Positions 1 through 63,722 are shown, counted from the stretch's first letter. The stretch: 64,000 bases of DNA from Mustelus asterias (GCF_964213995.1 NC_135821.1:4712001-4776000), one strand, 5' to 3'. Translations and numbers: made by a program. The notes: generated from the sequence alone by a model not told the origin.

Positions 1-1764
1 GATGTGATCTCCAAGCTTCTTGATCATCTTCACTTGTTCATCCAAGTAGTGAGTCTCCAGGAAGTCACAAAGCTGGAAAGGAAAGACAGGAGAAATTAAT
101 GTGTCAAGTCAAACATGGAAGATCTTTTCCAGGAGAGAGAGTTACCCCCATCTTGCACTGGGTGGATGGGGAAAGTATTACAACTGGGTAATTTTAGTTA
201 ATGCATACAAGTAGCAAGTCACAATTCCATTAAACTGGGAGTGAGTGCCTCAAGGAACAGAGGTCTCAGAATCCAAAAGCCTTGGTAACATTTCAGTGAC
301 ACAGATCCAAGGTTTGGATGGCCTCTGCTTATAAACTCAGCAACTGAAAGCTCAGACTGAAGGACAGATTCCAGTATCAACATCCAACTTACATGAGGGT
401 CGGTGTTCCCAGAGGAGAGTTTGTGCAGATCCAGCAGACTCTGGTTCACATTCTTCTCCATCTGCAGAGCTCTCTGCATGGCCTCCAGACCATTGCTCCA
501 CTCATCCTGCTCTGGCTTCTGAAAGGAGACAAAATAGATCTGGGTAGTGCCATGGGATGTTACCTTGGGAACCATTACATCAGTCCCTCAATTAAAGGTG
601 ACAGGGGTAGAATCAAAGCCCATTCTCTGCACCAGAGAGAATCAGCACAAAGTTTAAGCCAGTTTACAGCCCAGAACCCCATTTATTGTTGCTTTAGCCA
701 TTAGCTCAGGGTGATCCAAAGGTCAAAGCCACACCAACTCATCATGCACCCATTCTCAGGTCATGAGGAATGTAGGTAGTAGGAACCCAAGGATGCAATG
801 GGAAAATGAACTAAACTATTTAAAAATAATGTGGCATCAAGAGGACAGAATCCAACCTTGACATCCTCCAGGATGACTCTGCCTCCACGTTTATTCTGGA
901 ATTCCATCAGTTTCTCAGCGTGTTCCCGTTCCTCATGTGACTGCTCCTTGAAGAACTCAGCAAAGTGACGCAGGGCAACATCATCCCGGTCAAAGTAAGA
1001 GGACTGTGGGTAAAGAGTCAGAGCAGAGATTATCCATGGGCCACTTGGAATTTAGAACAACCATCACAGATCATTTCCTTACTCAGGAATGGGTTCAAGT
1101 TTAGCTTCAACCATCAACCCATGTTTAATCCAATAGTGGGACATTCTTTCCTTCTCCCCCACCATGGAGACTTTAAAAATCAATGCTTAAAGTAGAAAAA
1201 CTTCAATTTAATCCAATTCATTGCTCCTGGAATGATTTAACCTTGGGGGAAGGAAAGCTCAACACAACAGGATTTACCCATTTAGAATGGCAGAGGGAGG
1301 AGAACATTCATAAGTGGTCACCCAATTAGATTACTTCCATTCAAGTTGGATAATTCAATTAGATTCATGCAGCTCATGAATCCACCAAGGGGATAGATTC
1401 AGAGTTGCCCAGTCCACTCTGCAAAGAAAGATGAGTCTTCTGTTGGAAATTTAATGGAGCCTGTTTCAGATGGAAACTCTTCAGAATCAGGTCAAGTTAT
1501 TACAGACAGGGAGCAGTCTGTTAACAAGATCTTGTCCCTCAATAACATTTATCAGCAACAACTATCATTTAAAGCCAAATTCATTGGCAAAGATATTGCA
1601 CCTGCTCAGAGCACAACCAGACCATTATTTTAAATTTAAACCCCAAAAATCACAAAGCTCACCATGGAGAGATAAACATAGGAGGAATAGAGCTCCAGGT
1701 TGATCTGCTTGTTAACAGCATCCTCACAGTCCTTGTGGTAGTTCTGACACACTTGGGAAGCCAT
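1..1764 (-). CDS. Ferritin heavy-chain-like (H/M-type) gene, copy 1; 3' end truncated by the window edge
   Basis: Exons 1764-1663 ([34 protein letters not shown]), 1003-857 ([40 protein letters not shown]), 518-393 ([15 protein letters not shown]) and 72-<1 ([24 protein letters not shown]..). GT-AG junctions and exon sizes match the vertebrate ferritin gene structure. Confidence 0.95.
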
Positions 1765-1903
1765 TGTACTCTCACTGGAAGAAAACTCAACCAAGCTGAG
1801 CTGTTTAGCCACAAGCTCTTGTATTTATACCACTGGGACATCCTGCATTCAAACTGGGAATGACATCACCAATGATGATTGACAACCCCTGATAGCCAAT
1901 CAG
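1765..1903 (-). promoter_or_regulatory. Proximal promoter and short 5'UTR of copy 1: TATAAA (1829-1824), TGACATCA CRE/ATF-like site, CCAAT boxes
   Basis: GGTATAAATAC about 60 bp above the ATG; the same block is conserved in all nine copies. Confidence 0.7.
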
Positions 1904-2217
1904 GGTGAACGGTGGGAAGCTTTTCCCCAGGTCGGTGGTGACGTTCATGAGGGGTCATAGGTTCAAGGTGAAGGGGGGGAGGTTTAACACAGATATCAGA
2001 AGGACATATTTTACACAGAGGGTGGTGGGGGCCTGGAATGCGCTGCCAGGCAAGGTGGTGGAGGCGGACACACTGGGAACGTTTAAGACTTATCTAGACA
2101 GCCATATGAACGGAGTGGGAATAGAGGGATACAAAAGAATGGTCTAGTTTGGACCAGGGAGCGGCACGGGCGTGGAGGGCCGAAGGGCCTGTTCCTGTGC
2201 TGTATTGTTCTTTGTTT
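1903..2217 (+). mobile_element. CR1 LINE 3' fragment inserted in the copy 1 promoter
   Basis: Encodes ..[21 protein letters not shown].. (CR1 ORF2 C-terminus), followed by the GGGCCGAAGGGCC 3'UTR and a (TTCTTTG)-type tail; absent from the paralogous promoters. Confidence 0.88.
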
Positions 2218-60509: not shown

Positions 60510-63500
60510 TTAGTCACTCTCCCCCAGGGCGAGTCTGTCAAACAAGTACTCTCCCATGCCATTCTCAGGAGCTCCCAGTCTCTTCAGGTTGGTGATGTGA
60601 TCTCCAAGCTTCTTGATCATCTTCACTTGTTCATCCAAGTAGTGAGTCTCCAGGAAGTCACACAGCTGGAAAAGAAAATGTTACAAATCAACATCTGCCA
60701 GGAACTTTCCCCCACAAGAGATTGTATTTGCACTGGGAGGTTAGCAATGTACTACAATGGAACTGGATACCTCATGGTCCAGTAAGCTTGAGATTCTAGC
60801 ATCACATTTAGTTCCAGTTGTCCAATTAGCTCACCTCCCTATCCTCAATCATCTCTTCCCCCAAAGCCCAGGACAGATACATGTGGAGCATTTGAACCGA
60901 TCAAAGGGAGGGTTGGTGCCAAGGAAACAACTTACATGGGGATCGCTGTGTCCAGAGGAGAGTTTGTGCAGATCCAGCAGACTCTGGTTCACATTCTTCT
61001 CCATCTGCAGAGCTCTCTGCATGGCCTCCAGACCATTGCTCCACTCATCCTGCTCTGGCTTCTGAAGCAGAAAGGCAGACACTTCACTCATAATGGAGTC
61101 AAACAGGAGGAAGTTCAAGGCAACACAAAAAGCAGTCCATGTTACTAGCAACCAATGCACCACAAGAAAATCTTTGCATCACACCCTGGTATTGCCAGAG
61201 ATGCACATATCCATCAAATCCAACCTGGACATCCTCCAGGATGATTCTGCCTCCACGTTTATTCTGGAATTCCATCAGTTTCTCAGTGTGTTCCTGTTCC
61301 TCATGTGACTGCTCCTTGAAGAACTCAGCAAAGTGACTCAGGGCAACATCATCCCGGTCAAAGTAACAGAACTGAGGAAAGAGAATTTTACAAAATCTAT
61401 CAATTGTTTCCCCAACTCAAATCTACTAACTATTAATCCTGAACTGCTAGTTTCTGTACAAAACAAAGCCAAAAGATCCAGCAAACAAAATCAGGAAGCT
61501 TGGAATTTTGATTCATGCCTATAGTTTATAATTAAGACAGCCCACCGACACATCTACTCAGGACACCAAGGAAATTTGGCATGTCAAGTACGACTCACCA
61601 ACTTTTACAGATGCGCCATAGAAAACATCATTTCCAGATGCATCAGTTTAGTATGGCTCCTGCTCAGACCAAAACTGCAAAGGGTTGAGAATGTAACCCA
61701 GTCCATCACACAAACCATCCATTGACTCCATCTACACTTCCTGCTGCCTCTGAAAAGCAGCCAGCATAATTAAGGACTCCCTCCCATCTTCTCCCATTGG
61801 GAAGGTACAAAAGTTTGAGATTATATACCAACCAACTACTGAATGGATCTACCTTACATTAACCTGATCTTTCTACACCCTAGTTATGACTAACACGAGA
61901 TTCTACACCCCCTCCTCCCCCATGTACTCTGAATACATATGTAAACTAATATGAAAATAAATGAAATTAATTTGATGCATCGTATTAAGGCTCCACCTGT
62001 TCTAAGGTGGACAGAACATTCTTCAGAAACATTGCTGGATAACATTCTCTCCAGTGTTCGGGACAACATTGGCCCCTCAACAAATAGCACCAAATTAGAC
62101 AGTTTAATTACTGATGCGCTTCTCAATCACGAGGCTAGATGCTCGGTAAATAAAAGGCTTTTATTTACTGTAATGAAGCAGCCAATAATTATATACACTA
62201 TCCCAGACTGAAGGGGTCCCGGCCAGAGCAGGGACTTTTATACCTCTCCCAGGAGGCGGAGCCCGACTGGGATGTACCACAACACTACAGTACAAAGGTG
62301 TAACAACCCCACCCTAACCCCAACAGCAACAAGTAGCACAACCCAACAGTAACATATGTACATCCTTGTAGTACTGGCCAGACCCTGGCTCAGTACTATC
62401 CAGTGGGAACCAACGATGGTTCACCACAATTACTTCATAGGAGAGCTGGCAATTAGTGAAAACTTCCTCAATTAGAAAAAGAACAAATTTATTCCTCATT
62501 CAATAGCCCAGGCAACCTGAGGAAGTGAAAGACACATCAATGCAAAAGCCACCCATGAAATGGACCAAGCAGCATCCTTCATTCTAGTTTCACTGCAGAT
62601 CAAGAATTCTGGGCACCCCGAACACCACCAGGGCTTTTCTGGTCATTAATTGATAGTTACAAGCAGGGACTTGCTAACATTTCCCTAGCTACAGTCACCC
62701 GCATTGAAGCTGAACCTTGTCTAATGTTAACAAGCACCTGACCAGCTTTGTGCTCAGTTCCAAACTCAGGCAGCAGCTGAACTAGTTTCATCCATTAAAC
62801 CCCTCAATGGAGAGCAGCTGTCCTCTTTTTTTAGGTCAAACCAAACCAAGTAAACAAACTCAGATTAAATCAGGACAAAGTAAAAAGGGGCAGCTCCCCA
62901 AAAAGGGGGGGGGGGGGGGGGGGGGGGGGCGGAACAGCCCGAACAGAAATCAAAGTACAAAGGAAACTTAAAAACATCAAATTAAAATGTGATTATTGGG
63001 GTCAATAATGCACCCCAACCCCTGCGGTGCCCAGCAGGCACAAGGAGCAGCCCATTCACTCAACATCACCCTGGATTACACACTGGAGACACTCACCCCC
63101 AGGGGTGAAAGTAAAGAGAAGTTTTAGTCACAAGTAGGCTGACATTAACACTGCAATGAAGTTACTGTGAAAATCCCCTAGTCACCACACTCCAGCACCT
63201 GTTCGGGTACACCGAGGGAGAATTTAGCACAGCCAATGCACCCATCATCTTTCAGACTGTGGGAGGGAACCAGAGCACCCGGGGAAACCCACACAGACAC
63301 GGGGAGAACGTGCAGACTCCTCACAGACAGTGACCCAAGCCAGGAATCAAACCCAGGTCCCTGGTACTGAGGCAGCAGTACTAACCACTGTGCCATTAAT
63401 ATCATTTATAAAGTCACTTCATTCAACTGGAGAAGATCCCACATTTCAGACCACAGTGACAAGGAACACAAAGCTCACCATGGAGAGGTAAATATAGGAG

Positions 63501-63580
63501 GAATAGAGCTCCAGGTTGATCTGCTTGTTAACAGCATCCTCACAATCCTTGTGGTAGTTCTGACACACTTGGGAAGCCAT
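60510..63580 (-). CDS. Ferritin heavy-chain-like gene, copy 9 (176 aa; R60Q, A63T, K83Q, GHSDPH, ends ..ALGESD)
   Basis: Exons 63580-63479, 61371-61225, 61061-60936, 60665-60510 (TAA). Open frame. AATAAA at 60392-60387. Confidence 0.95.
62112..62428 (-). mobile_element. Solo LTR (317 bp), same family as 39028-39305, in intron 1 of copy 9
   Basis: Minus strand starts TGTGGTGAACCAT and ends GCATCA; 5-bp TSD attac (62107-62111 / 62429-62433). Confidence 0.85.
62819..63044 (-). mobile_element. Short Tx1/L1-clade 3' end with an expanded G-run
   Basis: Nearly identical to 47045-47240; flanking gagcagc duplication. Confidence 0.82.
63115..63395 (-). mobile_element. V-domain SINE in intron 1 of copy 9
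   Basis: tRNA head plus V-domain. Confidence 0.8.
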
Positions 63581-63722
63581 CTCACTGAGGATAAGAGTCA
63601 CACAACAACAAGCTGACCTCTGCCCTCACAAGCTCTTGTATTTATACCACTGGGACATCCTACATTCAAACTGGGAATGACATCACCAATGATGATTGAC
63701 AACCCCTGACAGCCAATCAGGA
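63581..63722 (-). promoter_or_regulatory. Proximal promoter of copy 9 (TATAAA 63646-63641)
   Basis: Conserved block, interrupted distally by a Tx1-like insertion. Confidence 0.68.

Follow-up and report, generated by a model that had tools for sequence, protein, structure and literature searches.

Exons and a core promoter probably kept uniform by gene conversion in an old shark ferritin array

Introduction

Shark ferritin genes occur in clusters. In the passages available to us, Yang et al. (2026, PNAS; PMC13214024) describe FTH1b clusters, a large one (55 genes) and a small one (4 genes) on one chromosome, and tie ferritin copy number to ferroptosis and longevity; the accessible part of Sahm et al. 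(bioRxiv 10.1101/2024.09.09.611499) counts shark ferritin clusters and reports ovary-specific expression in the Greenland shark. With 36 + 4 genes on contig C21 of genome G000, the locus analysed here is the same kind of locus as the 55 + 4 clusters of the Yang passages and, judged by sequence and by the layout of one large and one small cluster, represents an already published kind of shark ferritin cluster. Exon-limited homogenisation, mosaic introns, inverted arms and the lack of an iron-responsive element (IRE) before the copies scanned are features of this array that are absent from the Yang and Sahm passages. As retrieved, the main texts of both papers contain neither "conversion" nor "concerted" (that of Yang et al. 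also lacks "intron"), and the five supplementary files of Yang et al. contain neither "gene conversion" nor "concerted". A literature search, with subscription journals and the Sahm supplements outside its scope, returned no paper on shark ferritin gene conversion, and the exon-island pattern was not found described for a shark ferritin cluster in the texts searched.

We read the array as an extreme case of a process already known, gene conversion. In mammalian KRTAP1, the consulted portion of Zhou et al. (bioRxiv 10.1101/282418) describes concerted coding DNA between diverged flanks, with an abrupt switch at the initiation and termination codons, and explains it by short-tract conversion and selection, rejecting mRNA templating. 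There are four KRTAP1 copies, each described as a single coding block, against 36 copies in the ferritin array; here, unlike in KRTAP1, each gene has five islands of 90-147 bp separated by unalignable DNA, and modules are swapped. HMA4 of Arabidopsis halleri (bioRxiv 10.1101/2025.10.29.685298, seen in part) undergoes interlocus conversion with mosaic divergence, long introns escaping and exons sharing variants. HMA4, however, has three young copies whose long introns are only about 5-6% apart and whose short introns are still converted, whereas in the ferritin array even introns of 116-300 bp have escaped. Conversion for more than 100 million years has been described for BMP8A/B, DDX19A/B and TUBG1/2, one of these pairs being inverted (PMC2720389, in the sections available); their tracts include introns and show raised GC, whereas in the ferritin array the introns are left out and GC3 is not elevated.

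Results

Organization of the array

The 36 H/M-type ferritin genes occupy 283 kb (C21:4.66-4.95 Mb) and form two inverted arms in which gene order is mirrored. The window, that is the whole 64-kb stretch of DNA analysed, contains nine of them, all four-exon genes on the minus strand (Table 1). The small cluster lies on the same contig (four genes, C21:10.47-10.50 Mb). Exon 2 matches PF00210 (E 1.4e-11); exon 4 searched alone gave no family match. The best PDB matches of protein P0157, which equals copy 8 across 170 residues, are ferritin middle-subunit and heavy-chain entries (from E 5e-88). Predicted ferroxidase-centre residues E24, Y31, E58, E59, E104 and Q138 are present in 32/32 array proteins and the predicted H62 in 31/32; in human numbering we take the centre to consist of E27, Y34, E61, E62, H65, E107 and Q141. 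All 34 four-exon units retain their three introns. The broken copies are g19, g25, g27/28, g29 and g33, of which g19, g25, g29 and g33 are nevertheless 98-100% identical to the majority sequence; CDS statistics refer to 33 of the 36 units, omitting g19, g25 and g27/28.

An IRE in the 5' UTR is typical of vertebrate H/M-type ferritin genes. An Rfam scan of the window and eight loci detected none before the nine window copies or in the four-gene cluster, the sole IRE of that scan lying upstream of the flanking single gene g41.

Table 1. Positions of ferritin gene copies and associated features in the window
Feature	Position	Strand	Details
Copy 1 (g07)	1..1764	-	exons 1663-1764, 857-1003, 393-518; exon 4 from 72 past window edge; short C-terminus; 5' UTR class differs from copies 2-9
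Copy 1 5' UTR (class C) and core-promoter island	1765..1903	-	TATA starts 1829
Copy 2 (g08)	5679..8577	-	exons 8476-8577, 6981-7127, 6407-6532, 5682-5825; 173 aa; introns of class 2-5; 3' flank as copy 1
Copy 2 5' UTR (class B) and promoter island	8578..8717	-	TATA starts 8643
Same 5' UTR/promoter block before copies 3-9	starts 18721, 26188, 32490, 40378, 48652, 54883, 63720		
CDS position 288 (GCC/GCA, synonymous)	6494 (copy 2), 52399 (copy 8)	-	
Copy 3 (g09)	15673..18581	-	exons 18480-18581, 16885-17031, 16296-16421, 15676-15819; old A at CDS 288
Copy 4 (g10)	22794..26048	-	exons 25947-26048, 24206-24352, 23364-23489, 22797-22940
Copy 5 (g11)	29033..32350	-	exons 32249-32350, 30193-30339, 29607-29732, 29036-29179; mosaic, upstream DNA as copies 6-7, introns as copies 2-4
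Copy 6 (g12)	36669..40238	-	exons 40137-40238, 38469-38615, 37674-37799, 36681-36824 + 3 codons + stop; 176 aa
Copy 7 (g13)	45224..48512	-	exons 48411-48512, 46400-46546, 45605-45730, 45236-45379 + 3 codons; 176 aa; old A kept at CDS 288
Copy 8 (g14)	51937..54743	-	exons 54642-54743, 53313-53459, 52312-52437, 51949-52092 + 3 codons; intron 3 class also in organisms B and D
Copy 9 (g15)	60510..63580	-	exons 63479-63580, 61225-61371, 60936-61061, 60522-60665 + 3 codons; most diverged array copy, 16/513 bases off majority

Exon islands and mosaic genes

A sequence-only reading of the window had described coding exons that are near-identical even at silent positions, and the counts agree: copies 1 and 6 have a single mismatch in the 126 bases of exon 3, and pS ranges from 0.009 to 0.097 over the 36 pairs of window copies, the maximum occurring with copy 9. 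Throughout the array, short coding pieces are about 98% identical while many introns are unalignable. Among the 33 four-exon copies compared, 388 of 528 pairs lack any alignable intron, and pS in these pairs is 0.0425 (4.3%); in 30 pairs with introns 6-17% apart it is 0.035. Set against intron divergence, a comparison that the same reading had proposed, dS stays flat at about 4%. Silent divergence of the flanking single ferritins is 0.55-0.72.

Identity also collapses near the splice sites, as had been claimed: in pairs with unrelated flanks it is mostly at least 90% up to the splice site and about 20-40% beyond. At donors the drop takes no more than about 9 bases, at acceptors 10-13. Exon 2 varies among copies in its first five bases, and a non-consensus donor, GTTGGAT, is common to 31 of 34 copies. 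The proposed division into four flank classes (copies 1, 2-5, 6-8 and 9) stands for the introns; the clean separation does not, since flanks are mixed, as in copies 2 and 5.

Recombination and linkage were assessed with four-gamete, permutation and Mantel tests. The copies share 18 variants, with all four gametes in 112 of 153 variant pairs. Seven of ten tested variants are unlinked to the adjacent flank class (p > 0.05), the linked ones being 378, 516 and 517; exon variants are thus independent of the adjacent intron class save at the last codons. Flank-class switches number 16 at the promoter and 10, 2, 4 and 3 at the exons, against 0, 1 and 0 in intron interiors (35 versus 1), counts that hinge on identity cut-offs of 0.80 and 0.62 and comprise non-independent events. 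From this placement, rarely within introns, it follows that many of the genes combine old intron modules in mosaic fashion. CDS distance remains weakly associated with flank class (Mantel rho -0.14, p 0.046) and shows no dependence on arm or adjacency (11.3 on the same arm, 11.7 on opposite arms, 10.9 for adjacent genes).

GC-biased conversion was considered and rejected: GC3 is 0.66 in the array and 0.63, 0.72 and 0.63 in single ferritins, and polarised changes run both ways (288 A>C, 506 A>G, 136 C>A).

Lineage-specific uniformity and turnover of a silent site

The sequence-only reading had anticipated clustering by species. In a tree of 180 array-type proteins from 13 sharks, 7 of 7 lineage groups are monophyletic: G000 (32/32, support 0.90), Heptranchias (22/22), Pristiophorus (44/44), Heterodontus (6/6), orectolobiforms (56/56), Scyliorhinus (8/8) and lamniforms (12/12, support 0), the proteins of species other than G000 being a sample from among the matches listed and their counts therefore "at least". 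The input consisted of 238 database proteins, 70 of which were dropped for short cover or excess length; a further 27 rows (divergent ferritins, amphibian proteins and possible G000 own proteins) were left out, and two cluster-b proteins were restored as outgroup. Near species of one order are unseparated. Each lineage has its own fixed residues; short and long C-termini occur together in 12 of 13 species, and these two C-terminal classes cut across lineages. These protein clades would also fit separate recent expansions in the other species.

At CDS position 288, 29 of 33 array copies, drawn from every intron class, have C. A accounts for 98-100% of contig depth in organisms B, C, D, E and G, and for 0 of 58.5 in a second sample of organism A, contig depth being a rough proxy for copy share in which retrocopies are counted. 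Outside the array, A is present in 8 of 9 dispersed copies and in both intron-bearing copies (10/11); because one dispersed copy (L077) has C, the C allele may be old. At CDS 394, T is absent from the array (0/33) and present in both off-array intron-bearing copies and in 8 of 21 array-derived dispersed copies, whose 3' flanks represent two or more classes. The two intron-bearing copies, both of which look damaged, retain old alleles. Copies on other chromosomes are 3.7-4.1% off the majority, versus 2-16 of 513 bases inside the array.

Contig pieces from organisms B and D match copy 2 in its introns and copy 8 in intron 3, a cross-species sharing that covers two classes and short contigs only. 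Exons 3-4 of organisms A and D show one near-fixed silent difference (among the 40 of 48 rows listed); a 160-bp stretch of intron 3 has 15 differences. Silent differences being so few relative to intron 3, silent-site constraint or slow sweeps may contribute.

The flat dS, the lineage clustering, the shared intron classes and the turned-over silent site together support the proposal that old paralogues undergo short-tract conversion. We hold with good confidence that this is an old 36-gene array in which exons of 102-147 bp and a core promoter of about 90 bp are kept uniform by repeated DNA-templated conversion between neighbours. Conversion is read here from sequence patterns, not from events directly observed.

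DNA or cDNA as the template

The near-identical block extending about 140 bp upstream of the ATG, as previously described, is continuous in copies 2-9; in copy 1 it is broken by a different 5' UTR. Since another UTR stands between promoter and ATG in that copy, the core promoter constitutes a separate island. In 285 pairs with unrelated UTRs, core promoter identity is 0.92 versus 0.56 for the UTR (shuffled null 0.52). Two retrocopies begin about 34 bases upstream of the ATG, indicating that the TATA block is normally untranscribed. The inclusion of promoter DNA had been taken as an argument against a cDNA template; it keeps its force to the extent that the TATA box normally lies outside the transcript, and loses some of it to a third intronless copy, which includes 106 upstream bases with a TATA box, and to the fact that selection alone could hold the promoter.

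Abundant germ-line mRNA might be reverse-transcribed and overwrite exons singly. Such an RNA or cDNA template would suit the coincidence of exon edges with island edges, the TATA region of the intronless copy, and the edge copies g19 and g37, which match the other genes from the ATG on despite unrelated promoters. The genome contains 106 exon-4 matches; of 26 dispersed loci examined, 19 carry exon-exon junctions, from which it follows that array mRNA has been reverse-transcribed in the germ line (L053 and L054 come from the small cluster, and L043 resembles a fragment of genomic DNA). However, both 5' and 3' UTRs, though part of the mRNA, split into unrelated classes; none of the 34 four-exon units has lost an intron; non-consensus intron bases are common to copies; flank switches require DNA exchange; and the off-chromosome copies, although reachable by cDNA, keep old alleles at 288 and 394 (the intron-bearing ones being two, both apparently damaged). 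Because of the unhomogenised UTRs, the shared intron bases, the intact introns and the old off-array alleles, DNA-level conversion fits better, and a cDNA template appears decidedly unlikely.

Selection, recent expansion and assembly

The array might alternatively evolve by birth and death, with very strong purifying selection extending to synonymous sites (codon use, splicing, mRNA signals). The presence of broken copies accords with this, as does silent divergence from organism D, which looks lower than intron divergence. Yet comparison among copies gives a pN/pS of 0.46, and the protein is changed by 49 of the 73 singletons, suggesting lax selection on each copy; lineages have fixed residues of their own; and a silent site has switched state across intron classes. 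Furthermore, pS is only about 0.04 among array copies, as against 46-76% of silent sites differing between paralogous ferritins. We therefore regard birth and death under such selection as very unlikely.

If the array had expanded recently, introns would have to have been swiftly replaced through transposons and deletions, and repeats do account for about 40-60% of the first intron in eight of the nine window copies. After repeat masking, however, introns of different classes stay unalignable, in agreement with the sequence-only reading: best local alignments measure 8-70 bp (27 pairs per intron), and the repeat-free remainders and repeat-free short introns fare no better. Faint remnants of homology (40-70 bp) persist between some classes, and within classes 2-5 and 6-8 masked introns align along most of their length. 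The nearest introns in the array are 4.7% apart (pairs with at least 900 aligned bases), and two intron classes recur in organisms B and D. A recent expansion is already largely refuted, and we consider it highly improbable.

That mis-mapped reads overwrote the exons during assembly or polishing, or that two haplotypes were joined head to head, has next to no chance of being correct: near-identical islands mis-map easily and the arms mirror each other, but copies carry many private and shared variants, in contigs from the second sample and from other organisms the exons are collapsed, with 1-3 differences, proteins from 12 further sharks are similarly uniform, and the haplotype mis-join in particular is ruled out by arms at least 4.7% apart in introns within a gap-free array.

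Discussion

The array probably arose by ancient expansion and inverted duplication. Introns would then have drifted and gained repeats until pairing was lost, while selection would have held exons and promoter similar enough to pair. Break repair would copy any nearby paralogue, heterology halting the tracts a few bases beyond the splice sites, and conversion would overwrite silent and mildly harmful changes alike. Mosaic genes would result when an intron or UTR is now and then exchanged, either by crossover or by a tract with anchors in the two islands on either side of it.

Islands of 90-147 bp are at or under the homology length usually deemed necessary for vertebrate recombination. It is conceivable, though rather doubtful, that the array constitutes an exon-island recombination system in which such islands have been overwritten for hundreds of millions of years and intron/UTR cassettes swapped, the boldest form adding oocyte mRNA as part of the template.

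Exon-based trees and Ks are unable to date or pair array genes, and short-read expression or copy counts are unassignable to single copies. The array offers an unusually clean test bed for the minimum island length that sustains conversion, and for how long, with five islands of known length per gene, some 36 genes, and dispersed copies that preserve past alleles like fossils.

Large ferritin arrays are found across sharks, and the present findings bear on longevity readings of the ferritin expansion, as the copies are apparently maintained as a single product. The likely purpose of the array is bulk output of one uniform ferritin subunit outside IRE control, probably in the oocyte. The germ-line retrocopies are compatible with the ovary-specific expression reported for the Greenland shark but do not point to a particular tissue. 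If the genes are IRE-less and, as is probable, expressed in the ovary, the array would represent a dosage solution like that of histone and rDNA arrays, with introns that preserve its deep history.

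Organization of the ferritin array

Self-comparison of the window reveals four short blocks repeated nine times on the minus strand, and their translation corresponds to an H/M-type ferritin with four exons, of 102, 147, 126 and 144+ bp. A search of 414 kb around the window found 36 ferritin units at 4.662-4.945 Mb in two head-to-head groups of 18, the first on the minus strand and the second on the plus strand, with three diverged single ferritins (g38, g40 and g41) lying beyond. Visible breaks affect five units (g19, g25, which is without exon 3, g27/28, g29 and g33); thus, 31 of the 36 appear intact. 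The best non-coding partners of the two arms occur in mirror order (Spearman -0.98 for 15 pairs, which are not independent). Because no assembly gap was found within the array and introns compared between arms are at least 4.7% different, the mirrored arms point to an old inverted duplication; the same observations disfavour a mis-join of the arms. The array is an old, decayed giant palindrome whose intron classes are mirrored between arms.

Coordinates of array features in the M. asterias genome (G000, contig C21)
Feature	Location	Remark
Window	G000:C21:4712001-4776000	
Array as two arms of 18 units	G000:C21:4662309-4945192	arm junction between 4802657 and 4806549
Broken unit g27/28	G000:C21:4865615-4866187	exon 1 part joined to exon 3 part

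Exon identity and intron divergence

The near-identity of exons, silent sites included, that had been read from the window extends to 33 four-exon copies of the array (pS 0.041, pN 0.019; 528 pairs), and the introns said to be unrelated between classes still fail to align after repeat masking, except for remnants of up to 70 bp. Silent-site and intron divergence are uncoupled as proposed: pS is 0.0425 in the 388 pairs without any alignable intron and 0.035 in the 30 pairs with three alignable introns, where intron mismatch is 6-17%. Silent sites differ by 55-72% between the array and the single ferritins and by ~46-51% between the array and a small four-gene cluster (see below). At donors, identity falls off in ~9 bases. 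The sequence-only reading also had the near-identical block continue upstream through the promoter. This stands for the core promoter, as a separate island with an identity of 0.92 where the downstream UTR is unrelated, but not for the edge copies g19 and g37, whose promoters and UTRs are unrelated, yet which match the other copies from the ATG onward. Separately, exon 2 opens with two codons (window 7123-7127 and equivalents) that vary between copies (F/S/L, then C/S/A/R/T), independently of intron class, and in other sharks too; they are a hypervariable spot within an otherwise uniform ferritin.

The second cluster comprises four related ferritins (L062-L065, G000:C21:10.47-10.50 Mb) with a pS of 0.05-0.07 among them. 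Their introns are similar at the ends (40-130 bp) and poorly alignable in the interiors, so that the cluster looks like a smaller, independent instance of the array's process with longer tracts.

Classing nine flank segments per gene identified many array genes as mosaics of flank classes, a feature beyond the sequence-only reading. For example, g21 combines an intron 1 of the copy 6-8 class with copy 2-5 class introns 2-3, g02 and g36 have introns 1-2 but not intron 3 in common, and identity within one 5' UTR class reaches as much as 100% between genes whose introns are unrelated. Clear class switches, whose counts depend on the chosen cut-offs and whose events are not independent, fall at the promoter in 16 genes, at exons 1-4 in 10, 2, 4 and 3, respectively, and within an intron once, suggesting that the islands are also crossover points or long-tract anchors.

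Evidence for turnover across sharks

Four lines of evidence favour turnover of the array exons through homogenization over stasis. As conversion predicts, array-type proteins (180 from 13 sharks) cluster by lineage, each of seven lineage groups forming one clade (support 0.87-0.96; lamniforms 0); lineage-fixed residues are present, close species are unseparated, and 12 of the 13 species have both the short and the long C-terminus. At the synonymous position CDS 288 (GCC/GCA), 29 of 33 copies, from both arms and from different intron classes, carry C. Five related sharks (organisms B, C, D, E and G) have A there, at 98-100% of the contig depth; in a second sample of organism A, no A was found at this site. 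Introns of two array classes are also present in organisms B and D, whose pieces of copy 8 intron 3 carry 6 and 15 differences over some 140-160 bp. Shared variants have recombined (four gametes in 112 of 153 variant pairs) and, apart from those towards the 3' end of the CDS, are unlinked to the neighbouring intron class. The pN/pS of 0.46 among copies, with changes mostly singletons, looks like allelic variation at one locus. Counting against turnover are the few fixed silent differences between the array and organism D, the lack of a GC3 excess in array copies and a weak residual link between CDS and flank class. Among database proteins, three shark- or vertebrate-like ferritins from very short contigs labelled as bacterial (P0088, P0118 and P0122) are probably contamination.

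As another of the four lines, array-type copies dispersed outside the array record older allele states. Of 9 dispersed copies, 8 have A288, as do both intron-bearing copies outside the array. T394 occurs in both of these off-array copies and in 8 of 21 dispersed copies derived from the array, with 3' flanks from at least two classes, versus none of 33 array genes. All 33 array genes have G at CDS 506, whereas A506 (Lys169), which most other sharks share, is found in three of the most diverged copies. Three loci (L037, L036 and L043, on C11, C22 and C24) are class 2-5 gene fragments with introns that were relocated as DNA; in the C11 copy, promoter and exon 1 are duplicated.

Probable template of the homogenization

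The conversion is very probably DNA-templated. Reverse transcription does take place, exon junctions being present in 19 of 26 dispersed loci, but RNA or cDNA as the template is quite improbable: UTRs of different classes are unhomogenized, no intron has been lost, the non-consensus donor GTTGGAT is common to 31 of 34 copies, and old alleles are retained in copies on other chromosomes. Inclusion of the promoter had been taken as an argument for DNA. Consistent with this, two retrocopies start ~34 bases upstream of the ATG, ~30 bases downstream of the TATA box, which places the promoter island outside the usual transcript. The argument is weakened by a third, intronless retrocopy (L078, G000:C9:74.02 Mb) with 106 bases 5' of the ATG, including the TATA box, which suggests a rare upstream-initiated transcript or a cDNA-DNA recombinant.

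Discussion

The uniformity of exons between unrelated introns is real and well supported. Though extreme, it is a variant of a process already known, at a locus already described. Concerted evolution confined to coding DNA is already known in KRTAP1 (bioRxiv 10.1101/282418) and in milder form in HMA4 (bioRxiv 10.1101/2025.10.29.685298), and long-lasting conversion in mammalian gene pairs (PMC2720389). The shark ferritin cluster itself has been published (Sahm 2024, bioRxiv 10.1101/2024.09.09.611499; Yang 2026, PMC13214024); the searched text of both does not mention conversion or concerted evolution, and no publication addressing conversion there emerged from a literature search whose coverage excludes most subscription journals. 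Cross-species silent-site turnover, fossil alleles, module shuffling and mirrored arms are contributions of the present analysis.

The residues of the ferroxidase centre are conserved in the array proteins. Neither the nine window copies nor the small four-gene cluster yielded an IRE. The only IRE among the loci scanned lies 5' of g41 (L033:7814-7841), which is probably a housekeeping, parent-type gene adjoining the array. Another single ferritin, g40 (L031-L033, G000:C21:4974914-4985520), lacks an ATG near the usual place and is preceded by a GC-rich reading frame; it may encode an N-terminal extension, perhaps a targeting peptide. Between the single ferritin genes, a U2 snRNA match (L033:774-953, 49.1 bits) is probably a pseudogene. 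In the Greenland shark, expression of the ferritin cluster is reported to be ovary-specific (Sahm 2024, bioRxiv 10.1101/2024.09.09.611499). The likely role of the array would be bulk, iron-independent output of one subunit for the egg.
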